Shown: piece by piece, positions 5,819 through 59,560 of the stretch
Numbering within the stretch: position 1 is the stretch's first letter
Layout of the letters: each line of letters starts with the position of its first letter
Origin: an uncultured Ignavibacteria bacterium
GTDB taxonomy: Bacteria; Zixibacteria; MSB-5A5; CAIYYT01
Reading direction: 5' to 3'
Assembly (NCBI GenBank): GCA_964520555.1
Contig: CAZFNN010000013.1
Location: forward strand, 41,233 to 105,232
DNA length: 64,000 nucleotides
Notes under the pieces: generated by a model
The model's input: the letters and a program-made list of their open reading frames with translations, nothing else
The model's database searches: none
Told to the model about the DNA's origin: nothing
Made by a program: the position numbers and the translations under genes

Positions 5819-7000
5819 CTATCGCAGCGTCGCGTCCAGTTGACTAACCAACCGCTCCGCGATCTTCTCCCACGTCTGCTCGGCAAGAAATGCCGCATGG
5901 CGCTGCCGCAATTCCGCCGGTCGCAGCGCCAGGGCCGTCTTGATCGCCGCCTCCCACTCCTCCGGGTGGCAGGCGACGGTGCGCACCAGCTCGTCGGGAT
6001 AACTTGCCAACAAGTCATTTGGAGAGCAGACCGATGGCACGCCCGCCGCCGCCGTCTCGTAGAATTTTAGTGGATTTGAGTGATAGATGAACTCGCTGGG
6101 CAGGTAAGGGAGCAGCCCGACATCGAATCCCGCCACGATCTCCGGCACGCGGTCGCGCGCTACTTCGCCCACGTAATGCGCGTTCGCCGCTGAGCCGAGC
6201 CAACGTGCAAAGTCGTTCCCCTGTTGCCGGCCGACAAAAACCAACTGCCACGCGGGATTGCGTTCGGCCAGCGCCTTGAGCAATGGCCAATCGAGCCGCT
6301 CCGAGATCACCCCCGCATATCCCAGGCGCGGCCGGGCAATCGCCTCAATCCGCGGATCAACCTTGGGGCGGTCGCGGTCGAATCGACTCAGCACCGATTG
6401 CGACAGGCCGTTACCCGAGAGCCAGGCCTGCCGATAATGCGGCGCATATCGCTGGAGTAGGGAGGGTGTCACACACAGCAAAACATCAACGTGCTGCCGA
6501 TAACTGACTTCCAGTCTCTGACCGATGTCATCCGCCCTGTCGTCGGCAGCCGCAAGATAGTCGTACATCTCGTAAACTGTCGGCGCCCCTGGGAAAAGAC
6601 CGGTAACATAACCCTGAACCGGATGATAGTACCACACCAGCGGCGGTTCCGGCCCCAGCCCGAGCCGGCCGCGCACTCGCGCGTACCAACCCCGTAGTGC
6701 TTGAACATTGCGGCGCGTGATCCACGGATATCGCCAGGCGACGATATCGGTGAGCCAGTACTTCGGCGAAGCCAGGAACAGATTTTCCGCCAATGGTTCG
6801 AGTTTCTCCGTCTTGAAGTATTCTGTCACGCGCTGCGGCTTGCGGAAGACGGTTGAGACCGGACAAAGCGGGCGATTCACCGCGATGACCGTGAAGCCCT
6901 TTTTCCGACCGACTGCCGCCAGTGCGCGGACTTCATCCTGTCGTGTGAAGCTTGACCAATCGGTCTTGTTGAAAATCAGAAAAACCCGAGGCAGCGGCAT
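5819..7000 (-). CDS. glycosyltransferase (GT-B, family 1/4-like)
   Basis: 393 aa. The C-terminal half (YLPSEFIYHSNPLKFYETAAAGVPSV) resembles the nucleotide-sugar binding region of GT1/GT4 enzymes. Sits in a cluster with the Wzz/Wzy-like genes. Confidence 0.6.
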   Translation of the reverse strand: MPLPRVFLIFNKTDWSSFTRQDEVRALAAVGRKKGFTVIAVNRPLCPVSTVFRKPQRVTEYFKTEKLEPLAENLFLASPKYWLTDIVAWRYPWITRRNVQALRGWYARVRGRLGLGPEPPLVWYYHPVQGYVTGLFPGAPTVYEMYDYLAAADDRADDIGQRLEVSYRQHVDVLLCVTPSLLQRYAPHYRQAWLSGNGLSQSVLSRFDRDRPKVDPRIEAIARPRLGYAGVISERLDWPLLKALAERNPAWQLVFVGRQQGNDFARWLGSAANAHYVGEVARDRVPEIVAGFDVGLLPYLPSEFIYHSNPLKFYETAAAGVPSVCSPNDLLASYPDELVRTVACHPEEWEAAIKTALALRPAELRQRHAAFLAEQTWEKIAERLVSQLDATLR

Positions 7001-48312: not shown

Positions 48313-49503
48313 ATGAGTTTTACCGGCAATCTCCAAACGGTGGCGTTTCCCGATTTGCTCCAGTTGTTCTCTGCGGGCAAGAAGACCGGCACTGTAACCA
48401 TTATTCGCGGCAATATCCGCAAAGAGATTGTCTTCAAGGAAGGCAACATCATCAGCGCCAGCTCGCAGGATGCGGAAGAGGACTACCTCGGCCAGATCGT
48501 GCTCAAGAGCGGCCGCATCACCAAGACCGACCTGCAGCGTGCCGTCTACATGCACAAGACGTCGGGCAAGAAGATCGGCCAAGTCCTGGTTGAGATGAAA
48601 CTGCTGAACCGCGAAGAACTCGGCCTCCTTCTCAAACAGCAGGTGGAAGAGATCATCTACAACCTCTTCAGTTGGAAAGAGGGCGAGTTCATTTTCAAGG
48701 AAGGCCAGTTGCCCGCTTCGCGCGAAGGCCTGGTCGAACTCAACACCATGAACATCATCATGGAAGGCACGCGCCGTATCGACGAGTGGGTCGAAATCCA
48801 GAAAGTGCTGCCCTCCGATCATCAGATTCTGCGCGTCGCCGGCACACCGCAGATTAAGTCCGACGAGGTCACCATCTCGCTCGACGAATTCCGCATCCTG
48901 ACGCTGATCGACGGCACCCGCACCGTGCAGGACATCCTTTCGCAGTCGCCGCTCGGCGATTTCGCCACCTCGCGCGCCGTCTACAAGCTCCTGCTCGGCA
49001 AATTGGTGGAAGTCGCCGGCGCCAAGGAAGCCGAAGTGGCCGACCCGCGCGAAGAGGATTCCCTCTTCTGGCTATTGTTGCGCGTCTACGCCGCCTCGTT
49101 CAGCACCGTCCAGCGTACGCTCGAAAAGAAACTCGGCACTGAGAACGAGAAGGTGCAGGTGACCCTCGCCAATTTCCGCAAGGGCATCTGGCAGTACTTC
49201 AACGGTGTCAGCCACGCCGATTTCCCGACGAATTTCGAAGCCCTCAAACGCGCGCTGGCCAAGACTCCGAAAGAAACCCGCACGCTGAAACTGATCAGCG
49301 GCTTGAACCAGATTCTCGAAGAACAGCTCGCCTACGTCTACAACTACCTCGGCATCGAAATCCGCAAGCAGGTGGCCGCCGATATCAAGAAGGAAGTCGC
49401 CTTGCCGCTGGCCGAACGCCGCGAAATCGACAAGAAGTACGACGTCGGCAACGAGCTGTACCGGATCCTGAAGGAAGTGAAAGTGACCAAGGAGGTCCTG
49501 TGA
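48313..49503 (+). CDS. PATAN/DUF4388-domain protein
   Basis: 396 aa. N-terminus MSFTGNLQTVAFPDLLQLFSAGKKTGTVTI...KEIVFKEGNIISA...YLGQIVL..GRIT is the DUF4388 signature. A second helical half follows. Confidence 0.7.
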   Translation: MSFTGNLQTVAFPDLLQLFSAGKKTGTVTIIRGNIRKEIVFKEGNIISASSQDAEEDYLGQIVLKSGRITKTDLQRAVYMHKTSGKKIGQVLVEMKLLNREELGLLLKQQVEEIIYNLFSWKEGEFIFKEGQLPASREGLVELNTMNIIMEGTRRIDEWVEIQKVLPSDHQILRVAGTPQIKSDEVTISLDEFRILTLIDGTRTVQDILSQSPLGDFATSRAVYKLLLGKLVEVAGAKEAEVADPREEDSLFWLLLRVYAASFSTVQRTLEKKLGTENEKVQVTLANFRKGIWQYFNGVSHADFPTNFEALKRALAKTPKETRTLKLISGLNQILEEQLAYVYNYLGIEIRKQVAADIKKEVALPLAERREIDKKYDVGNELYRILKEVKVTKEVL

Positions 49504-49877: not shown

Positions 49878-49898
49878 CCCCAATCCGTGAAGGTCTCT

Positions 49899-50765
49899 AT
49901 GATGGAATCAGCAAGTCTGGCAGAGCGGATCGAAAAGTGCGAGCGGATTCTCAAGGAGAATTCGAACTCGCAGGTCTTCGCCGCGCTCGCCGACGCTTAC
50001 CGGGCTAACGGCGATCTCGATCAGGCGTTCCGCGTCTGTCGGCAAGGCCTGCGCGTCCATCCGACTTATGGGCCCGGCCACCTGGTGATGGCCCGCATCA
50101 GCTTTGAACGCAAAATGTTCGACTGGGCCGAACAGGAACTCGCCGAAGCCGTCGCCATCGACGGCGAAACCCGCGCCACCTCGCAGCTGCGCGTCGAAAT
50201 CCAGATCGCCAAAGGCAACTTCGGCGAAGCGGAATTGGATATCAAGAAGCTCCGCGCCACCGGCACGAATCCGCTGATGATCCAGGACCTGCAACAGCGC
50301 CTGGAGAAAGCCAAGAAGGAACTGCGCCGCCGCCGCAACGAGCAGGCTCCCGCCGTCGGCTTTGCCGCCGCGACCTCCTCGCTGCCGCCCTCGCCGCCGA
50401 CCAAGGTGCAGGAACCGCCGCTGACCTTAAGCCAGATGATGGACTGCGTCAGCGACTTCCCCAACGTCACCAGCGTCGTCTGCGCCAACCATGACGGTAC
50501 CGCCGTCGATCACCGCGGCGCCCCGGCGCAGTCCCCCGGCGAAGTCGCCGCCTTCGGCATCGAAATGTGCCGCAATACGCAAACCGACGGCGCCCGGCAG
50601 GTGCTGGGCGAAGCTCAACAAATCGTCGTGGAGACTCAGGATGCCACCATCGTCATCGTGCGCCTCAGCCGGTACGATCTCGTCCTGATGTGTGATAAGG
50701 ATGTCAACCTGGGCTCGATGCGTCTCAAGCTGGATGAGATCATCGACCGCCTCCGGATTGAATAG
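49899..50765 (+). CDS. TPR-Roadblock/LC7 fusion protein
   Basis: The N-terminal approximately 140 aa are TPR-like (ALADAYRANGDLDQAFRVCRQGL). A Pro/Ala linker follows. The C-terminal approximately 110 aa are Roadblock-like (VTSVVCANHDGTAVDHRG...ATIVIVRLSRYDLVLMCDKDVNLG). The tracked ORF begins at GTG 49887. Confidence 0.6.
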   Translation: MMESASLAERIEKCERILKENSNSQVFAALADAYRANGDLDQAFRVCRQGLRVHPTYGPGHLVMARISFERKMFDWAEQELAEAVAIDGETRATSQLRVEIQIAKGNFGEAELDIKKLRATGTNPLMIQDLQQRLEKAKKELRRRRNEQAPAVGFAAATSSLPPSPPTKVQEPPLTLSQMMDCVSDFPNVTSVVCANHDGTAVDHRGAPAQSPGEVAAFGIEMCRNTQTDGARQVLGEAQQIVVETQDATIVIVRLSRYDLVLMCDKDVNLGSMRLKLDEIIDRLRIE

Positions 50766-50780
50766 AGTTGAGAGGATGCT

Positions 50781-51731
50781 ATGGCTTTGACGATCAGGGA
50801 TGTTCGGCACTTGGTTTTGTTCCTGTTGATTCTCGCGGCGCTGCCGATGCTGGTCTATCCCAATACCCTCGGCTTCGGGATCGGGTTGACCGGTTGGTCT
50901 TACGTCGCCGGCGAGTTGCTGTTCTTTCTGGCGGTCAGCATGATCTTCAATCGCGATACCTCGCTCACCCGCGGCGCTGCCGCCGCCGGCTTGATCTGGA
51001 TCGGCCGCGTCGCCCTCTCCGGCGTCTTCTGCCTCTTCCTGATCGGCATGGAGCGCGTGGCGCCGGCCGCCGCCTGGAGCGATGCGTATCTCGAATTCCC
51101 GCCGGCCGTCTACCTGTTTACACTCACCGCTCCGTTTGTCTTCAACTCGACCGTGAGGTCCATCATGGCTAAAAAACGCCGCGTCCGCAAGCACACCAGC
51201 GAACGCATCATCATCGACGGCGCCGCGCGCGCCACGACGATGACGACGCCGTCCGCGCCGGTGCCGCGCGATTATTCCGTCACCGCCGTGCCGCAACCGC
51301 GACCGACGGCGGAATTCCTCGAACGCACCTTCCAGCACGCCGTCCAGCACGTCGGCGAATACTCCGGCGTCCTCTGCGCCATGCTGATCGACGGGGAAGG
51401 CCTGCCGGTCGCCGGCTGGAGCCGCGGCCGCTACGACCAGGACATGTGGAGCGCGCTCGCGCGCAAAATCGTCGACGACGTCAACCGCACCTGCGCCCAG
51501 GGCGGCACCGTCCATCCCCAAACCCTCGAGTTCAAAACCGGCCAGGAGCGCTTCTTTCTTCAACGCGTCGCCGATATGTGGCTCCTCTCCATCGCCGACG
51601 CCGCCTCCGACGAACTCGAAAAAATCCGCGTGCACCAAGCCGTCGATATGGTGCTGCGCCACCTTCAGGATCGTTACAAAAATCTCTATATGAGCGAAGC
51701 AGGGAGAAGTTATGCGGGAAGTACTGTCTGA
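50781..51731 (+). CDS. membrane-anchored Roadblock/LC7-domain protein
   Basis: 316 aa. About 4 N-terminal TM helices, a basic linker (KKRRVRKH), then a C-terminal Roadblock-like domain (SGVLCAMLIDGEGLPVAG...RFFLQRVADMWLLSIADAASD). Confidence 0.55.
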   Translation: MALTIRDVRHLVLFLLILAALPMLVYPNTLGFGIGLTGWSYVAGELLFFLAVSMIFNRDTSLTRGAAAAGLIWIGRVALSGVFCLFLIGMERVAPAAAWSDAYLEFPPAVYLFTLTAPFVFNSTVRSIMAKKRRVRKHTSERIIIDGAARATTMTTPSAPVPRDYSVTAVPQPRPTAEFLERTFQHAVQHVGEYSGVLCAMLIDGEGLPVAGWSRGRYDQDMWSALARKIVDDVNRTCAQGGTVHPQTLEFKTGQERFFLQRVADMWLLSIADAASDELEKIRVHQAVDMVLRHLQDRYKNLYMSEAGRSYAGSTV

Positions 51732-52047
51732 ACTGAATAAGACCTCCGGGATCACCGGCAGCATGCTCGTCGGGCACGACGGCATCGTCATCGCCGCCGA
51801 TCTCAACAGCAAGTTCGACAACGAAACCATCGGCGCCCTGGCCGGGTCGATCAGTTCCACCGTGGCCAAGAGCCTCGAACGGCTCCAACAAACGCCGTTG
51901 AAACAACTGACCATTGAGGCGGATGAAGCCAAAATGTTCATCGCGGCCACCCCCGTCGGCTATCTCGTGGTGACCGCCGAACCGCGCGTCAACATCGGAC
52001 TCGTTCGTCTCGAAATCAAGAATGCGATCACGCAGATCAGTCTGTAA
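51712..52047 (+). CDS. stand-alone Roadblock/LC7 protein (MglB/MglC-like)
   Basis: 111 aa, overlapping the preceding gene by 20 nt. Motif run ITGSMLVGHDGIVIAADL...AKMFIAATPVGYLVVTAEPRVNIG. Confidence 0.7.
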   Translation: MREVLSELNKTSGITGSMLVGHDGIVIAADLNSKFDNETIGALAGSISSTVAKSLERLQQTPLKQLTIEADEAKMFIAATPVGYLVVTAEPRVNIGLVRLEIKNAITQISL

Positions 52048-52079
52048 GGCCACGGCAGGGAGACTCTAGGAGACTCTAA

Positions 52080-53156
52080 ATGGTATCAATCAACTACGCG
52101 AGCCGGGAAGTTAGCTGCAAGATTGTCTACTACGGCCCCGGCTTGTCGGGCAAGACGACCAACCTGCAATACGTCCACGCCAAGGTGCCGAAAAAAACCC
52201 GCGGCGATCTCATCAGTCTGGCCACCGATGCCGATCGTACGCTCTATTTCGACTTTCTCCCGATCAACATCGGCGCCATCAATGGCTTCGCCACCAAGTT
52301 CCAGCTCTATACCGTGCCGGGACAAGTCTTCTACAATGCGACCCGCAAGCTCGTGCTCCGCGGTGTCGACGGCGTCGTCTTCGTCGCCGATTCCCAGCGC
52401 TCCAAGAAAGAAGAAAACATCGAGTCGCTGAACAACCTCAAGGAAAACCTCGTCGAATACGGCTACGACCTCAACACCCTGCCGATCGTGCTCCAATATA
52501 ACAAGCGCGATCTGCCGGAGGTGATGACGGTGGCCGAACTGCAGGCCGATCTCAACTGGAACAACCTGCCGTTCTTCGAGGCCTCCGCCGTCAAAGGTGT
52601 CGGCGTCTTCGATACGCTGAAACTGATTACCAAGCTGGTGCTCAATAAAGCCAAGAAGGGCGATGACTCGTCCGCTGCCGGCGCCGATGAGGCCGAACCC
52701 GCGGCCGCTTATCCGGCCGGCCCGCAGTCGTCCGGCGCACCGCCACCGGCCACACCGGAGCCGGAATCGGAGTACGAGCGCGCTGCCGCAACAGCCGTCG
52801 CGGCCCCGGCGACCGAAACGGCGCCGCGCCGCGTTGAGGTGCAGGCGCCGCCCGACGAGGAAGAGTGGGCCATGGCGCGCCCGGCGGCAACCGCCGCTGC
52901 GGCGGTTGCGCCCAAGCCGCACAAGCCGACCATCGCGGAGATTGAATCGCATCTGCAACCGATCGGCAATGGCGACTTCAACGCTCTGAAAATGGATAAA
53001 CCCGCGGCCGTGAAAACTACCGCGGACGCGCCTGCGACCGACTACGCCGAAACCTTCGAGGTGCCCAAGGTCGTCGGCATGCAGCGCAGCACCCGCGTCA
53101 AAAAGAAAAAGAAAGTATTCTTCTTATTCCGCTGGTTCAGCCGGGATAAGGATTAG
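52080..53156 (+). CDS. mglA: MglA-type Ras-like small GTPase with approximately 165-aa C-terminal extension
   Basis: Residues 1-194 are nearly co-linear with Myxococcus MglA as I recall it: MVSINYASREVSCKIVYYGPGLSGKTTNLQY, DRTLYFDFLP, YTVPGQVFY, QYNKRDL. The extension is Ala/Pro/Glu-rich and ends RVKKKKKVFFLFRWFSRDKD. Confidence 0.9.
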   Translation: MVSINYASREVSCKIVYYGPGLSGKTTNLQYVHAKVPKKTRGDLISLATDADRTLYFDFLPINIGAINGFATKFQLYTVPGQVFYNATRKLVLRGVDGVVFVADSQRSKKEENIESLNNLKENLVEYGYDLNTLPIVLQYNKRDLPEVMTVAELQADLNWNNLPFFEASAVKGVGVFDTLKLITKLVLNKAKKGDDSSAAGADEAEPAAAYPAGPQSSGAPPPATPEPESEYERAAATAVAAPATETAPRRVEVQAPPDEEEWAMARPAATAAAAVAPKPHKPTIAEIESHLQPIGNGDFNALKMDKPAAVKTTADAPATDYAETFEVPKVVGMQRSTRVKKKKKVFFLFRWFSRDKD

Positions 53157-53171
53157 TCAGGAGGTCTGAAA

Positions 53172-53660
53172 GTGGCTGGCGACAAACTCATTGTCTATTG
53201 GGACGACACCGAGAAAATCGATACGGTGATGACCCGGCTTCTGAAAGGTTCGGAAGCTAAGTGCGCCCTTTTGGTCGATAAGGATGGTCACCTCATCGCC
53301 CGACACGGCTTCACCCAATCTCTCGACACCACCGCGCTTTCGGCGCTCATGGCAGGCAGCTTCGCCTCCACCGCCGAAATTGCCAAGCTCGTGGGTGAAC
53401 CGGAATTCTCCGTCCTCTTTCACCAGGGACGCAAAGACCATATCCACATGGGCATCGTCGGCGACCGCTCGATTCTCGCGGTCATCTTCGACGATCGCAC
53501 CACGATCGGCATGGTCCGGCTCTATGCCAAGGAAGCTGCCGAAGAATTGCAGAAAATCTTCGAAACCGTCCTGCGCAAGGTCAACAGCACCGACCAGGGA
53601 CTGTCCGAAGAATTCACCGCCTCGGCGGAAAATAAACTGGAGGATATCTTCCGCGAATAG
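53172..53660 (+). CDS. mglB: MglB-like Roadblock/LC7 GTPase-activating protein
   Basis: 162 aa, GTG start 15 nt after mglA. Motifs LVDKDGHLIARHG.TQSLDTTALSAL..G, FHQG.KDHIHM.IVG.R.ILAVIFD and an acidic C-terminal helix, as in MglB. Confidence 0.85.
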   Translation: MAGDKLIVYWDDTEKIDTVMTRLLKGSEAKCALLVDKDGHLIARHGFTQSLDTTALSALMAGSFASTAEIAKLVGEPEFSVLFHQGRKDHIHMGIVGDRSILAVIFDDRTTIGMVRLYAKEAAEELQKIFETVLRKVNSTDQGLSEEFTASAENKLEDIFRE

Positions 53661-53698
53661 CTGCGGCAGGAATCGCAGCGGCAGCACCAGGAAGGACT

Positions 53699-55396
53699 AT
53701 GCCGAGCTCTAAAGAATTAGGGACAATGCTCGTCGACGCCGGCAAGATCACCGGCGATCAGCTCACCCAGGCTCTCGCCCTGGTGGAGCAGGGCAAGGGC
53801 CGCATCGAACAGGTCCTCGTGCAGATCGGCGCTGTGCCGGATGAAGAAGATATTACCAACTTCATCGGCAAACAGCTCAACATCGGCGCGATCCGCCTTT
53901 CCGATCTCGAGCTCAATCCCGATATCGTCAAGCTGATCCCCAACGACATTGCGCGCAAGTTCAATGTCATCGCGGTCAGCAAGCTTGGTAAAACCCTGGT
54001 CGTCGCTATCAGCGATCCCAACAATATCTATGTGCTCGATGCGATCAAATTCATCACCGGCTGCACGGTGCAACCGGTCATCTCGCCCGAACCCGCCATC
54101 CAGAAGGCGGTCGAGCACTACTATTCCAATTCCTCGCAGTACACCGAGATTCTCAAGGGCCTCGAAGATTCCGAAATCGAGGTCATTACCGCGGGCGACG
54201 ATGATATCAACGTTATGGAGCTGCAATCGGCGGTGCAGGACAAACCGCTGGTCAAGCTCGTCGACTCGATTATCGCCGAAGCCGTCCGCAAGGGCGCCTC
54301 GGATATTCACATCGAAACCTATGAAAAGCGGCTGCGCCTGCGCTACCGCATCGACGGCGATCTGATCGAAATGGCGCCGCTCCCGTTCAAGTACCGCGCG
54401 GCCATCGTCAGCCGCGTCAAGATCATGGCCGACCTCGATATCTCCGAGCGCCGCCTGCCCCAGGACGGACGCATCAAAATCAAAATCAGCGACCGCGCGA
54501 TTGACCTCCGCGTGTCGGTCCTGCCGACCATCTTCGGCGAAAAAGTCGTGATGCGTATTCTCGACCCGAAAGCCTTGATGCACGATCTGACCCATCTCGG
54601 CTTTCCGGAACTCTCGCTCAAGAAATTCGACAAAGCGATTCACCTGCCGTATGGCATTATCCTCGTCACCGGCCCGACCGGTTCCGGTAAGACGACGACC
54701 CTGTACTCGGCGCTCAAGGCGATCAACACCGTCGACGTCAACATCATGACCGCCGAAGACCCGGTCGAATTCAACTTCGAAGGCATCAACCAGGTCGCGG
54801 TCAAGCCCGATATCGGGCTGACCTTCGCCGCCGCGCTCCGGTCGTTCCTGCGTCAGGACCCGGACATCGTCATGGTCGGCGAAATTCGCGACGGCGAAAC
54901 CGCCGAAATTGCCATCCGCGCTTCGCTCACCGGACACCTGGTCTTCAGCACCCTGCACACGAACGATGCGCCCTCGTCGATCAACCGACTCATCGATATG
55001 GGCATTCCCAACTACCTGGTCGCCTCCGCCGCCAAGCTCATCATGGCCCAGCGTATGGTGCGCCGAATCTGCAAGCGCTGTCGCGAAGAGGTCAAGGCGG
55101 ATTCCGAAGTCCTCCTGCGCCTGGGCGTGCCCGAGGCCGAAATCAAGGGCTTCAAGGTCTACGAGGGCAAAGGTTGCTCCGAGTGCAACAACACCGGCCT
55201 CGCCGGACGAACCGGTTTGTTCGAAGTGATGGAAATCACTCCCGAAGTCGAGCGCCTCATCCTCGAAAACGCGCCGACCCCGGATATTCAGGCCCAGGCC
55301 ATCAAGGAAGGCATGCACACTCTGCGCATGGCCGGCATTGAAAAAGTCAAACTCGGCGTCACGACCATCGAACAAGTTCTGGGCGAGACGTCATAG
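53699..55396 (+). CDS. pilB: type IV pilus assembly ATPase PilB (GspE family)
   Basis: 565 aa. N-terminal GSPII/MshEN-like domain, Walker A GPTGSGKTTT, and the tetracysteine motif CKRC...CSEC. Confidence 0.9.
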   Translation: MPSSKELGTMLVDAGKITGDQLTQALALVEQGKGRIEQVLVQIGAVPDEEDITNFIGKQLNIGAIRLSDLELNPDIVKLIPNDIARKFNVIAVSKLGKTLVVAISDPNNIYVLDAIKFITGCTVQPVISPEPAIQKAVEHYYSNSSQYTEILKGLEDSEIEVITAGDDDINVMELQSAVQDKPLVKLVDSIIAEAVRKGASDIHIETYEKRLRLRYRIDGDLIEMAPLPFKYRAAIVSRVKIMADLDISERRLPQDGRIKIKISDRAIDLRVSVLPTIFGEKVVMRILDPKALMHDLTHLGFPELSLKKFDKAIHLPYGIILVTGPTGSGKTTTLYSALKAINTVDVNIMTAEDPVEFNFEGINQVAVKPDIGLTFAAALRSFLRQDPDIVMVGEIRDGETAEIAIRASLTGHLVFSTLHTNDAPSSINRLIDMGIPNYLVASAAKLIMAQRMVRRICKRCREEVKADSEVLLRLGVPEAEIKGFKVYEGKGCSECNNTGLAGRTGLFEVMEITPEVERLILENAPTPDIQAQAIKEGMHTLRMAGIEKVKLGVTTIEQVLGETS

Positions 55397-55438: not shown

Positions 55439-56521
55439 ATGATTAACCTGCGCGAATTGCTCGAGATTCTGCTCGAACGGAAAGGCTCCGACCTGCACCT
55501 CTCCGTCGGCTCGCCGCCCCAGGTCCGCGTTGACGGCCGCCTGATTCCGCTCGACATGGACGTGCTGACGCCGGAAACTACCAAGAAGCTGGCCTACAGC
55601 ATGATGTCCGAAAAGCAGAAACAGCGCTTTGAGGAAAACAACGAACTTGATATGTCGTTCGGCATCGAGAACATGAGCCGCTTCCGCGTCAACGTTTACA
55701 TGCAGCGCGGCAATATCTCCGTCGCCCTGCGCCAGATTCCGTTCAAAGTGCCGACCTTCGAAGAACTCGGCATCGACAAAACCATCGTCGAATTCGCCAA
55801 TGTTCCCAAAGGCCTCGTCCTGATTACCGGGCCGACCGGCTCCGGTAAGTCGACGACCCTGGCGGCGCTGATCGACAAGATCAATCGCGAACGCAGGGCG
55901 CATATCCTGACCGTGGAAGATCCGATCGAATACCTGCACCGCCACCAAAGCTGTCTGGTCAACCAGCGTGAAGTCGGCGCCGATACCCGCTCCTTCGCGG
56001 CGGCGCTCAAGTACGCGCTGCGGCAGGACCCCGACGTCGTCCTGATCGGTGAAATGCGCGACCTCGAGACCGTGTCCGAGGCGCTCAACATTTCCGAAAC
56101 CGGCCATCTGACCTTTGCCACCCTGCATACCAACTCCTGCGCGGAGACCATCAACCGCGTCATCGACGTGTTTCCGGTCAACCAGCAGGAGCAGATTCGC
56201 GTGACGCTCTCGTTCGTGCTGCAGGGTGTCGTTTCGCAGCAACTGGTGCCGCGCATCGGCGGCGGCCGCGTCCTGGCCACCGAAATCATGGTCTGTACGC
56301 CCGCCATCCGCGCCCTGATTCGCGACGACAAGATTCACCAAATCTATAGCATGCTGCAATCCGGCCAGAAGTACGGCATGAAGACCATGAACATGTCGCT
56401 GGCTGAGCTCTATCTGGCGCGCAAGATCACGATCGGCGAGGCGATGGCCCGTTCGTCCAACGTGCAGGAACTCAACGAAATCCTCTCGCGCGTGCAGACG
56501 GTCGCGGAAGTGCATCGTTAA
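55439..56521 (+). CDS. pilT: twitching-motility retraction ATPase PilT
   Basis: 360 aa. Motifs GSDLHLSVGSPPQVRVDG, GPTGSGKSTT, and the AIRALIRDDKIHQI motif. Confidence 0.92.
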   Translation: MINLRELLEILLERKGSDLHLSVGSPPQVRVDGRLIPLDMDVLTPETTKKLAYSMMSEKQKQRFEENNELDMSFGIENMSRFRVNVYMQRGNISVALRQIPFKVPTFEELGIDKTIVEFANVPKGLVLITGPTGSGKSTTLAALIDKINRERRAHILTVEDPIEYLHRHQSCLVNQREVGADTRSFAAALKYALRQDPDVVLIGEMRDLETVSEALNISETGHLTFATLHTNSCAETINRVIDVFPVNQQEQIRVTLSFVLQGVVSQQLVPRIGGGRVLATEIMVCTPAIRALIRDDKIHQIYSMLQSGQKYGMKTMNMSLAELYLARKITIGEAMARSSNVQELNEILSRVQTVAEVHR

Positions 56522-56542: not shown

Positions 56543-57742
56543 ATGCCGGTTTTTGAATACAAAGGCAAGACGGTCACCGGTTCGCAAGTCGAAGGCGAAC
56601 TGAAAGTCAAAGACCGCGCCGAACTCGATCGCATTCTGCGCCGCAACAAGATCCTGGTCGACAAGGTTTCCAAGAAGCCGTCGCAGATCCAGATCAAGAT
56701 CGGCTCGGGCATTAAGAAAGTGCACATCTCCCGCTTCACGCGCCAGTTCGCGACCATGATCGGCGCCGGTCTCCCGATGGTGCAGTGCCTGGATATTCTC
56801 TCCAAGCAGATGGATTCCCAGGAATTCTGCAAAATCATCGGCGAAATCAAGGACGCCGTTTCATCCGGTTCGACGCTCTCGGAGGCGATGGGCAAGCACA
56901 AGAAGGTCTTCGACGAACTCTACGTCAACATGGTCGAGGCCGGTGAAATGGGCGGCGCCCTCGACACGATTCTCGTCCGCCTCGCCAACTATCGCGAAAA
57001 AGCCGACGCGCTGACCCGCAAGGTCAAGGGCGCTTTGGTCTATCCGGCGATTGTGTCGCTGGTCGCGACCGGCGTGACGATTGCGATGTTGACCTTCATC
57101 GTGCCGATCTTCGCCAAGATGTTCGCCAATCTCGGCGCCGAGCTGCCCGGCCCGACCCAGTTCGTGCTCGGCATCTCGCACTTCCTGCAGAACTATTTCC
57201 TGGTGATCCTCGGCGCGCTGGTGCTGCTTTTCGTCGCCTTCAAGATCATGATGCGCAACGAAGAAGGCCGCTTCCAGTTTGACAAGTTTATGCTCAAAAC
57301 GCCGGTCTTCGGCGATTTGATCCGCAAATCCGCGGTTGCGCGCTTCACCCGCACCCTCGGCACGCTGATTCAGTCCGGCGTCACCATTCTCGACGCCCTC
57401 GAAATCACCGCCAAAACCGCGGGTAATAAGGTACTCCAGCGGGCGATCAAGAAATCGGTGCTGTCGATCGCCGAAGGCGATACCATCACCAACCCGCTGA
57501 AAGAATCGGGCGTGTTTCCGCCGATGGTAATCCAGATGATTGGCGTCGGCGAAAAAACCGGCGGTCTCGACGAAATGCTCTCCAAGATCGCCGACTTCTA
57601 CGATGAGGAAGTCGATGCGGCCGTCAGCGCCCTGACCTCGATGATCGAACCGATCATCATCGTCTTTATGGGTATCGTGATCGGCGGCATCCTGATCGCC
57701 ATGTACTTGCCGATGTTCGACATTATTGGCAAGATCAACTAA
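56543..57742 (+). CDS. pilC: type IV pilus platform protein PilC (GspF family)
   Basis: 399 aa. Two GspF-type repeats and three TM segments. N-terminus MPVFEYKGK. Confidence 0.9.
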   Translation: MPVFEYKGKTVTGSQVEGELKVKDRAELDRILRRNKILVDKVSKKPSQIQIKIGSGIKKVHISRFTRQFATMIGAGLPMVQCLDILSKQMDSQEFCKIIGEIKDAVSSGSTLSEAMGKHKKVFDELYVNMVEAGEMGGALDTILVRLANYREKADALTRKVKGALVYPAIVSLVATGVTIAMLTFIVPIFAKMFANLGAELPGPTQFVLGISHFLQNYFLVILGALVLLFVAFKIMMRNEEGRFQFDKFMLKTPVFGDLIRKSAVARFTRTLGTLIQSGVTILDALEITAKTAGNKVLQRAIKKSVLSIAEGDTITNPLKESGVFPPMVIQMIGVGEKTGGLDEMLSKIADFYDEEVDAAVSALTSMIEPIIIVFMGIVIGGILIAMYLPMFDIIGKIN

Positions 57743-57773: not shown

Positions 57774-57805
57774 GCCACCTCCGCTTGAGCGGAGGTGGCT
57801 TCTTC
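57774..57805 (+). promoter_or_regulatory. perfect 11-bp hairpin: weak terminator or translational control element
   Basis: GCCACCTCCGC (57774-57784), TTGA loop, GCGGAGGTGGC (57789-57799), then TTCTTC and ATG at 57806. The 3' arm contains the only SD (GGAGG) of the kinase gene. Confidence 0.5.
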
Positions 57806-59560
57806 ATGACGATGAAACAGCGTAAGAAAAAGCTCAAGGAAGAGTTGCGCAGCTTCTGGTTCATCCCGCTGCGCCTTTCGATCTTCCTATTGCTCTTCGG
57901 CGCCGTCGTCCTCAACGAAAGCACCCAGCGCCAGACCTTCTGGCCGTTCCTGCTCTACTCGCTGGCGACGCTGCTGTTCCTGCTCGTCATCGAGATCGAC
58001 GCCCGCTTCTTCCGTCCCGGCTTCCTGCGCACGATCATCTTCGTTCACTTTGCCTTTGAGTTGCTGGCCGAGGGCGCCATTATCCAGAGCGCCGGCCAGT
58101 TGACGGTGCAGTATTCCATCCTGTTCCTGCTCACGATCGTCTCGGCCAGCCTGATCTACAAACTCGTCGGGACGATCACCATCGCCACGCTGGCTTCGCT
58201 GACCTACGCCTTCACCTCCAGCCTCAATCGGCTCTTCGAGAAAGGCGAAGCCATCTCCTTCGACACCTTCCGCATCACCGTGCAGGGCAATGACGACGTC
58301 TTCTACGCGATCTTCATCCACGTCTGCACCTTCTATCTGGTCGCCTTTATCTCCGGCTTCCTCGCGCAAAAGCTCCGCGCCAAGGAAGGCGAACTCACGC
58401 ACGCTTCGGAAGAACTCGAGCGCGTTCAGCTTGACACCGACGACATTCTCCAGAATCTCCATTCCGGTCTCGTCACCGTCGACGCCGCCGGCCGCATCGT
58501 CTATTTCAACCGCGCCGCCGAAAATATCCTTGGCTATCGCGGCATCGATGTGAAAGGGAAGAGCTTTCTGGAGGTCTTCAATCACTCCATGCCCGACTTC
58601 TGCGAACGCGTGCTCTCGGTACTCAAACTGGCCAAGCCGAATGTGCGCACCGAGGTGGAGATCGTCGGCAAGAATGGCCGGCGCCTGCCGCTCGGCCTCT
58701 CCGCCTCGATCCTCGGCGATGAACGCATCGGCCTGCGTGGCGTGGTCGCCGTCTTTCAAGATCTTACCGCCGCCAAGGAGATGGAGCAGGCGCTGATCAA
58801 GGCGGACCGCCTCGCCGCCGTCGGCGAACTCTCGGCCCGCATCGCCCACGAAATTCGCAACCCGCTCGCCTCGATCTCCGGCTCGGTGGAAGTCCTCAAG
58901 AACGAAATCGCCTTGCAGGATGACAATGCCCGCCTGATGCAGTTGATCGTGAAAGAATCGGAGCGGCTGTCGCGGATTCTTAACGATTTCCTCAGCTACG
59001 CCCGCACCGGCCCCGGTCGCTCAGCCAAAGTCGAAATCGTCTCGGTCGCCGGTGAAGTCGTCGAACTGCTGCGTCATGACCCGCGCGTGCCGGCCGGCGT
59101 CAAATTCGAATTCGTCACCGCGCAACCGACCGACTACGTTATCGGCGACGAAGATCAGATCCGCCAGGTCTTGCTCAATATTCTGACCAACGCCGTCGAT
59201 GCCGTCGCTCCCGACGACGGACGCATCATCGTGAAAATCGGCCTCCACGCCCAACGGGCCGAATATCCCGCCGGCGATTGGCTGAGCCTTGTCATCACCG
59301 ACAATGGCAGCGGTATCAGCCCCGACGTCAAAGACAAACTGTTTGAGCCGTTCTTCTCGCGCAAGAAGGGAGGCACCGGCCTTGGCCTGGCGATCGTCAA
59401 GCGCTGCGTCGACAACATGAGAGGCCACATCGAAATCGAATCGGCACCCGGCGCCGGTGCCAAGTTCATCCTCTATCTCCGCCGCTACCAGCTTGCCCGC
59501 GATGAAGAAATGACAGCCGCGCCGGACTCATCCAAAGCTGCTCTTCTCAACGCCAAGTAG
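57806..59560 (+). CDS. PilS-like sensor histidine kinase (6 TM, PAS, HisKA, HATPase)
   Basis: H-box [13 protein letters not shown]-box [12 protein letters not shown]-boxes DNGSGI and [10 protein letters not shown]. Sits in the position after pilC, as pilS does in Myxococcus/Geobacter clusters. Confidence 0.8.

Follow-up and report, generated by a model that had tools for sequence, protein, structure and literature searches.

The subject of this analysis is a gene for an MglA-type small GTPase at 52080-53156 on the forward strand of a 64,000-nucleotide stretch of DNA (hereafter the window) from an uncultured Ignavibacteria bacterium that GTDB places within the Zixibacteria (contig CAZFNN010000013.1). 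MglA is the paradigm of small-GTPase-driven bacterial polarity, and to our knowledge all mechanistic work on it presumes a soluble protein that is captured at the pole by landmark and guanine nucleotide exchange factor (GEF) proteins. The protein encoded here carries a long C-terminal extension with a conserved basic and aromatic end, and the best reading of it is a membrane-tethered MglA that would control the polarity of type IV pili; that membrane tethering is the function of the tail we hold with a probability of roughly 0.7.

The gene is one unbroken frame of 358 amino acids plus a stop, with GGAG ~8 nt 5' of the ATG. After the G domain (residues 1-194, 52080-52661) the frame runs on for another 164 aa, from residue 195 (nt 52662) onwards, an extension very close in length to the ~165 aa after a complete GTPase core that a sequence-only reading of this DNA had proposed. 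That reading had also described the extension as Ala/Pro/Glu-rich with a polybasic-aromatic end and both are present: the string it quoted, AEPAAAYPAGPQSSGAPPPATPEPESEYE, lies within the extension and the final 20 aa (nt 53094-53153) are RVKKKKKVFFLFRWFSRDKD, tail segments of which are also written KKKKKVFFLFRWF and KKKKKVFFLFRWFSRDKD. The tail is both basic and extreme C-terminal, with a polybasic block K341-K345 (53100-53114) followed by an aromatic/hydrophobic plug V346-F353 (VFFLFRWF, 53115-53138) that stops 5 residues before the end of the protein, and the net charge over the last 25 aa is +8. Among the 141 stop-to-stop frames of at least 150 aa within the window, none but this one combines in its last 25 aa a charge of at least +4, at least 4 aromatics and a segment with a Wimley-White interfacial energy of -4 kcal/mol or lower (scale values after Wimley & White 1996).

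Between the G domain and the tail runs an acidic linker rich in Ala, Pro, Glu and Thr (residues 195-320, 52662-53039). In the first 144 residues of the extension, counted as linker for composition, A+P+E+T make up 57%, there are 23 acidic and 11 basic residues giving a net charge of about -12, and GC reaches 74-75% vs about 56% in the core. The term low-complexity, used in the sequence-only reading, suits this A/P/E/T-rich linker but not the extension as a whole, which is not uniform and holds three conserved islands besides the terminal motif. These are island 1 (residues 249-263, 52824-52868, PRRVEVQAPPDEEEW, clade consensus pRRvEV....d..W), island 2 (residues 283-297, 52926-52970, PTIAEIESHLQPIGN, clade consensus ptlaEIESkL....N) and island 3 (residues 321-338, 53040-53093, DYAETFEVPKVVGMQRST, clade consensus fADaFEVPxVxgMqkSl). 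The codons of the anchor are A/T-rich (AAA AAG AAA AAG AAA GTA TTC TTC TTA TTC), which is unusual at a genome GC of roughly 57-60%, and over 53100-53249 GC falls to 45%.

Residues 3-197 align without gaps and end to end with the solved MglA of Myxococcus xanthus (5ymx, E 4.3e-82; also 6h17 and 6hjh) and with that of Thermus thermophilus (3t12, E 1.4e-70), the solved proteins being 195-203 aa long. On the long MglA Pfam reports the generic Ras and Arf families alone, over residues 50-187. The P-loop GxxxxGKT (G19-T27), the intrinsic arginine finger R53 and the catalytic Q82 are all present, and G19, G21, G24, K25, T26, T27, R53, T54, D58 and Q82 are invariant in alignments of both 64 and 118 sequences; the functional roles of the P-loop, arginine finger and catalytic glutamine are documented (PMC4316618, PMC10933270). 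Judged by these residues, the gene is a bona fide MglA-type Ras-like GTPase, predicted to be catalytically complete, which has every feature that defines the family except a single-domain size of ~195 aa. The closest cluster, at 94% identity, includes MCC6962760.1 from a Zixibacteria metagenome-assembled genome (MAG), which is annotated merely as "GTPase domain-containing protein".

It might be suspected beforehand that such an extension is an artefact, whether through a frameshift in the assembly, read-through of a real stop or fusion of two genes, and apart from that suspicion the one thing that speaks for it is a 1-nt deletion at 52802 in one of two divergent-strain unitigs from an RNA run, which we have treated as strain or assembly noise. 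Three independent studies (soil 2024, activated sludge 2018, bioreactor 2021) yield Logan contigs that cover positions 52300-53300 without indels, two unitigs are identical to the window over 52371-53146 and 52596-53149 respectively, and the query is matched over 97-100% of its length by more than 118 full-length homologs with identities as low as 48%. A wastewater metatranscriptome includes contigs from a strain 90-95% identical to this one, and these cover 51700-53700 without a gap, beginning in the upstream Roadblock gene and crossing core, linker and tail to reach mglB; this tiling was obtained at an 85% identity threshold, with no match at 95%. The stop or frameshift near nt 52660 that, by the sequence-only reading, would have refuted it is excluded by the indel-free contigs and by the codon comparison that follows.

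The pattern of selection speaks the same language. In a codon-by-codon comparison with the L001 ortholog (81% identical) the core (1-194) has 60 synonymous and 2 non-synonymous codon changes, the linker (195-322) has 22 and 53, and the last 36 codons (323-358) have 8 and 2, with three indels of 3, 18 and 9 nt that are all multiples of three. Core and tail are under strong purifying selection and the linker under relaxed selection that preserves the frame, and a constrained domain followed by a relaxed, frame-preserving spacer and a constrained terminus is the signature of a tethered functional peptide. With indel-free assemblies, full-length homologs and a tail under purifying selection, a frameshift or assembly artefact was rejected and the artefactual origin of the extension is scarcely credible. 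In a strain variant from the bioreactor (run X6, contig 27) 357 nt of the linker, window 52667-53025, are swapped for 369 unrelated nt with the flanks kept; both lengths are multiples of three, and the linker turns over by in-frame replacement.

The end of the protein is the best conserved part of the extension among its relatives. A word-indexed homolog search returned 8000 candidates, the best 120 of which were used for the tail counts, and all but one of these 120 are 325-473 aa long (the exception, P0086, has 248 aa), many of them aligning over 97-100% of the query. A polybasic and aromatic/hydrophobic C-terminus (defined over the last 25 aa by a net charge of +4 or more and two or more aromatics) is found in 118 of the 120, with a median net charge of +8 and a median of 4 aromatics. 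Column information stands at about 3.5-4.3 bits in the core, falls to about 1.0 in the linker and rises again to 2.5-3.2 at residues 331-350, where F350 is invariant and F347 and L349 are kept in at least 90% of sequences. Both the conservation of the basic-aromatic terminus and the great length of homologs in related MAGs (consistently 325-476 aa), for which the sequence-only reading had proposed checks, are therefore borne out. Within the clade of the window the tail takes the form KKKKK[RK]FFLFRWF, and other recurrent flavours are KKRGFFKRLFGIK, KKKRSFWRKLFSWI and KRFSLFGWLRRLF, so that across subclades FFLFRWF, GFFKRLFGIK, SFWRKLFSWI and FSLFGWLRRLF replace one another. The tail keeps its physico-chemistry and not its sequence, which is the pattern expected of lipid binding.

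The three islands are conserved within the clade of the window. In island 3 the alignment of 64 sequences shows no variation at F326, P329 and M334, and this pre-anchor peptide, F.VP.V.GM..S, is conserved as strongly as the tail; in altered form, PS.xxP.MAxSL[KR], it occurs family-wide (for example PFALPS.RPKMAA, APSVIPPAPSLKR and MAPSLRRR). Linkers diverge much further. In L017 the linker is a 240-aa Lys/Glu-rich, coiled-coil-like stretch and in L016 a 285-aa stretch rich in Ser, Asp and Glu, both proteins ending in a basic-aromatic tail, and in this comparison constraint appears to be confined to the two ends of the protein.

Some of these tails are nearly those of MinD. The translation of E. 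coli K-12 minD has the C-terminus ...EEEKKGFLKRLFGG, the Zixibacteria homolog L005 ends NKPGFLKRLFGNK with the 8-mer GFLKRLFG identical to that of E. coli MinD, and many further homologs end KKRGFFKRLFGIK, near-identical to KKGFLKRLFGG of E. coli MinD. Experiments have established the C-terminus of MinD as an amphipathic helix for membrane targeting; one copy on its own has weak affinity and requires dimerisation (PMC8155659, citing Szeto 2002/2003, Hu & Lutkenhaus 2003). The tail of the window itself shares only the K-run and the F/L/F pattern with this motif, relatives such as L005 being closer. On the Wimley-White scale FFLFRWF has an interfacial energy of -6.1 kcal/mol vs -1.6 kcal/mol for FLKRLF of MinD, about 4.5 more hydrophobic, which suggests that one copy of the tail could suffice as an anchor; for the GFFKRLFGIK subclades the value is about -2.4 kcal/mol. 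The tail in the window would then be a polybasic block with an aromatic plug, apparently stronger than the element in MinD and closer to the MARCKS effector domain or to Rit.

Structure prediction with AlphaFold2 was run twice, with a 64-sequence alignment (mean pLDDT 55.5) and a 118-sequence alignment (mean pLDDT 62.3). Core residues 100-190 reach a pLDDT of about 90, with the P-loop and switch regions poorly defined in a model that contains no nucleotide. Residues 200-335 stay below 50 save for a short helix at 285-290 in island 2, the sole predicted helix of the extension (pLDDT 74 for the block 281-290), and island 2 is a candidate partner-binding motif. No docking of the islands or the tail onto the core was seen in the models, a result that their low confidence makes uninformative. 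The models support a disordered linker and neither support nor exclude folding at a membrane.

Searches with the extension alone gave no Pfam family at E <= 1 and, in the PDB, only a spurious low-complexity match to Fcf2 (E 0.055), and NCBIfam lacks a model specific to long MglA. The protein ends ...SRDKD with no CAAX, CC or CXC motif and no cysteine in the last 160 residues. A C-terminal transmembrane (TM) helix of at least 18 aa is likewise absent, the hydrophobic run being 7-8 aa.

Long forms are by no means confined to the relatives closest to the window. Comparison of 80 loci from species-representative genomes found long, motif-bearing MglA in 18 Zixibacteria-type MAGs, some of them labelled Ignavibacteria or Terriglobales at NCBI, and homologs of 192-210 aa in all Myxococcota, Acidobacteriota and Geobacter-like loci and in most Gemmatimonadota; most homologs from cultured organisms are of this size. 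Four Planctomycetota MAGs (L043, L044, L047 and L067) encode MglA homologs of 311-356 aa in which a disordered, Ala/Pro/Arg-rich linker leads to a terminal hydrophobic helix (ORFs beginning near position 6001 or 4210), and Kyte-Doolittle 19-mer values of 2.07-2.75 predict that these helices are tail anchors. Applied to a background of 2280 frames from all the DNA retrieved, the strict motif rule picks out 22, of which ~19 should be the MglA genes of the window and of the 18 motif-bearing loci.

HMMER, run exhaustively against 1.84 billion representatives at 50% identity, returned 2389 proteins at E <= 1e-30, and the best 150 of these are all 255-717 aa long. The earlier statement that canonical MglA is ~195 aa without a tail therefore remains good for the characterised proteins and fails for the family at large. 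Forty of these 150 have a MinD-like or polybasic-aromatic end by the strict rule, roughly 10-15 further ends classed as "other" look MinD-like by eye and fall below the thresholds (for example KKRGFFSRLFGG and KKKGFFGRLFGRG), and 21-24 carry a terminal TM helix (such as P0166, P0169, P0186 and P0230). The remaining ends are "other"; among them are an F.DL.PF.G.D motif that recurs and a beta-rich end, 'VLKLRI...RRAA'. Several long MglA classes lack a membrane anchor (P0160, P0196, P0197, P0199, P0178, L024; P0225, P0229, P0238, P0243, P0250); the acidic F.DL.PF.G.D end recurs in one such class and the beta-rich end, '..G.VLKLRI....RRAA', which resembles a small folded domain, in another.

A neighbour-joining tree built from the G domains supports the motif-bearing clade as monophyletic at a bootstrap of 98/100 and the TM clade at 100/100, with the sister relation of the two at 20/100 and the monophyly of all long forms at 47/100. 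If the long forms share an origin the type of anchor would later have been swapped, otherwise the anchors would be convergent, and the tree does not decide between the two. On either account the motif and TM tails speak for membrane attachment as the function of the C-terminus.

The gene belongs to a dense cluster read in one direction on the forward strand, in which neighbouring genes overlap or lie 15-45 nt apart. The gene directly upstream of the module encodes a DUF4388/PATAN protein (48313-49503, E 3.5e-34), a type of protein that has been linked to MglA/Roadblock and motility loci. It is followed by a tetratricopeptide repeat (TPR) protein with a roadblock-like C-terminus (49887-50765), the last 130 aa of which give weak matches to LAMTOR5 (E 0.0044) and MAPKK1_Int/MP1 (E 0.0073), both short of the Pfam cut-offs. 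Next comes a Roadblock protein of 316 aa (50781-51731) that is predicted to be membrane-embedded, with N-terminal TM-like segments at residues 8-26 and 70-88 (Kyte-Doolittle >2) and a C-terminal Robl domain (Roadblock/LC7 E 7.7e-4 on a fragment). The last 20 nt of this gene overlap the start of a Roadblock/LC7 gene of 111 aa (51712-52047), which lies immediately 5' of mglA and is kept at every anchor-bearing locus. An MglB-like GTPase-activating protein (GAP) of 162 aa (53172-53660) begins 15 nt 3' of the mglA stop with a GGAGG ribosome-binding site; it matches Robl_LC7 at E 8.8e-13 and the NF052242 model for MglB at E 1.1e-25, short of the equivalog cut-off, and the gene is present at all related loci. 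Four roadblock-type proteins, the TPR protein, the two Roadblock proteins and MglB, thus surround a single GTPase.

Downstream follow PilB, the type IV pilus extension ATPase (53699-55396), PilT, the retraction ATPase (55439-56521), PilC (56543-57742, T2SSF, E 1e-65) and a PilS-like histidine kinase (57785-59560) with 6TM_PilS, PAS, HisKA and HATPase_c domains. With PilC and the PilS-like kinase after PilT, the MglA module is embedded in a complete cluster for the type IVa pilus motor and its regulation. A scan of 48-60 kb for promoters and terminators gave nothing above shuffles, which is consistent with one operon and is not proof of it. The block TPR / TM-Robl / Robl / MglA / MglB / PilB / PilT is conserved in L001-L017, and in L020, the 5' end of which is cut, only Robl / MglA / MglB / PilB / PilT is visible. 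The order Roadblock-mglA-mglB holds in all long-form loci of both the motif and the TM type, Planctomycetota included, and in nearly all short canonical loci mglB lies immediately 5' of mglA. MglA of M. xanthus directs PilB and PilT to opposing poles (PMC4085708), and given the adjacency of both genes here a role in type IV pilus polarity would be expected.

The mechanism that we would propose from this follows the order of the parts, from the G domain (1-194) through an acidic disordered spacer of ~125 aa and the pre-anchor peptide (321-338) to a putative terminal lipid-binding element. The C-terminal anchor would keep the G domain close to the cytoplasmic membrane, on its inner face, the five lysines (341-345) attracting anionic phospholipids and the VFFLFRWF plug inserting into the bilayer interface. 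Repulsion between the membrane and the anionic spacer would turn the latter into a leash, on which the G domain could explore a shell some ten nanometres deep beneath the membrane. The GTP/GDP cycle would be controlled by the co-encoded GAP MglB together with the three further Roadblock-domain proteins, one of them membrane-embedded, and the output would be the downstream-encoded PilB and PilT ATPases, setting the polarity or activity of the type IV pilus. The tether through a flexible linker that had been suggested from the DNA alone gains in silico support from the conservation of the tail, the MinD-like tails of sister subclades and the TM substitution in Planctomycetota. What the analysis establishes is an intact ORF for an MglA with its catalytic residues, the patterns of conservation and selection, the conserved operon and the occurrence of MinD-like and TM-anchored versions in relatives; lipid binding and its mode (constitutive as against gated), partners for islands 1-3, control of PilB/PilT and independence from RomR/RomX are inferred.

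Several observations weigh against membrane tethering as set out here. The maximum hydrophobic moment of the window tail taken as a helix was reached by 3618/5000 and 2960/5000 shuffles and its strand-periodicity moment by 3219/5000, AlphaFold2 gives the tail a pLDDT of 52-62 over two runs with no helix assigned, and the analogy with MinD holds through homology to sister subclades and would not apply directly to the window tail. Islands 1-3 are conserved yet lipid binding gives no explanation for them, and the RNA evidence comes from a 90-95% identical strain rather than from that of the window, in a run in which DNA was possibly present. The moment does not exceed that of shuffles because the hydrophobic residues sit as one block (VFFLFRWF) after the lysine block; for comparison, shuffles reach the moment of SFWRKLFSWI in 393/5000 cases, that of GFFKRLFGIK in 1193/5000 and that of MinD itself in 1111/5000. 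An amphipathic-helix model for the tail of the window, as entertained in the sequence-only reading, is thus unsupported.

The conserved islands, and above all a pre-anchor peptide that equals the tail in conservation, would be easier to understand if the terminal motif were a short linear motif for docking to a protein (the Roadblock proteins, MglB, PilB/PilT or PilM) or folded back on the G domain to inhibit it, and there is a precedent in the C-terminal helix of MglB, which regulates MglA allosterically (PMC6785124). However, the sequence of the terminal motif shifts between subclades with charge and hydrophobicity kept, some members equal the MinD membrane-targeting sequence, the AlphaFold2 models have no contact onto the core, and a TM helix takes the place of the motif in Planctomycetota, an exchange that would not be open to a specific docking peptide; we regard docking as the function of the tail as improbable. 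Segregation of charge between the -12 linker and the +8 tail with its 5 aromatic residues, together with the fact that disordered polar organisers are common among bacteria, could also be taken to mean that the extension drives polar self-association into a condensate, or that it binds nucleic acid or polyphosphate and not the membrane. The TM-helix substitution and the MinD-sequence identity in relatives point instead to lipid, and linker charge and length vary across the family (as in L016 and L017), so that this would be very surprising. A real anchor that is conditional, gated by nucleotide state or oligomerisation and cycling on and off as in Arf/Sar1 or MinD, is a refinement of tethering and not a contradiction of it. 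Its appeal is that the GFFKRLFGIK subclades are as weak as MinD (about -2.4 vs -1.6 kcal/mol) and that the acidic linker (-12) could shield the basic tail (+8), but the variant in the window exceeds that of MinD by far in hydrophobicity (-6.1 kcal/mol) and is also the more basic, no contact between tail and core is predicted, and MglA is monomeric in known complexes, 1 MglA to 2 MglB (PMC4316618, citing Miertzschke et al. 2011). Gating therefore seems unlikely, and membrane tethering remains the reading that we prefer.

No description of an anchored MglA was found in the literature searched, in which subscription journals were thinly covered; the reference survey of prokaryotic Ras-superfamily GTPases makes no mention of C-terminal extensions or anchors in MglA (PMC4316618), and work on Asgard archaea puts the origin of anchoring C-terminal extensions in eukaryogenesis (PMC10933270). 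A known switch and a known type of anchor appear to be combined here in an undescribed way that is widespread in uncultured lineages, where hundreds of relatives share it. If MglA is tethered it would diffuse in two dimensions and reach a high local concentration at the pilus base, perhaps with no soluble pool, and such changed switch physics would make it a natural experiment on polarity without RomR/RomX-type recruitment. For the evolution of eukaryotic small GTPases it would mean that bacterial Ras-like GTPases already have a hypervariable linker with an anchor, and at least two types of the latter. It is possible, although we hold this only tentatively, that a linker with a C-terminal anchor on Ras-superfamily switches is an old and widespread bacterial design and not a eukaryotic invention; a large MglA radiation, for the most part uncultured (Zixibacteria, allied FCB lineages, Planctomycetota and others) might then use interchangeable anchors (MinD-like helix, polybasic-aromatic plug or TM helix) and a membrane-embedded Roadblock scaffold, as a counterpart of the logic of the Ras hypervariable region (HVR) and of Ragulator-Rag, in place of RomR/RomX for type IV pilus polarity. 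The short tails (KKKKKxFFLFRWF, KKRGFFKRLFGIK) are also candidate transplantable membrane tags of graded strength.

Among known systems the MglA proteins of M. xanthus and T. thermophilus are alike in the G domain, the catalytic residues, the adjacent MglB-type GAP and the link to PilB/PilT. The characterised ones are soluble proteins of 195-203 aa that RomR/RomX recruit, whereas the MglA of the window has a 164-aa extension that would bear an anchor, and their gene order is mglB-mglA as opposed to Robl-mglA-mglB with three extra Roadblock proteins. SofG of M. xanthus is another small GTPase of the MglA family that serves the positioning of PilB/PilT (PMC4085708); it is localised by the bactofilin BacP and not by a lipid anchor, and the protein described here is much closer to MglA proper. 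MinD, whose membrane-targeting sequence is grouped with the amphipathic helices of FtsA and MreB, has a short basic motif with Phe/Leu at the extreme C-terminus, but in MinD the motif sits directly on a ParA/MinD ATPase, whereas in the MglA of the window it is separated from the GTPase by a linker of more than 120 aa and there is no known dimerisation switch.

There are eukaryotic parallels too. K-Ras4B combines a Ras-fold G domain, a flexible variable linker and a C-terminal polybasic membrane anchor, and the Rit/Rin and RGK GTPases have non-lipidated polybasic-aromatic tails. The architecture of the window MglA matches that of K-Ras4B, Rit and RGK and, as in Rit and RGK, would need no lipid modification; it differs from eukaryotic Ras/Rho proteins in the lack of a CAAX box, in a linker 4-6 times longer and in an independent origin within the MglA family. 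In the effector domain of MARCKS a Lys-rich stretch with several Phe that insert into the interface works without a helix. This unrelated protein matches the block-type pattern of the window tail and its lack of a predicted helix, although MARCKS interleaves its basic and aromatic residues and the window tail has them in two blocks. Finally, in Ragulator-Rag several Roadblock-fold proteins, one of them membrane-attached, are likewise found with a small GTPase, as they are encoded beside one here. This is an analogy alone, as the LAMTOR5/MP1 matches fall under Pfam thresholds, and unlike Ragulator-Rag the GTPase of the window would have an anchor of its own.

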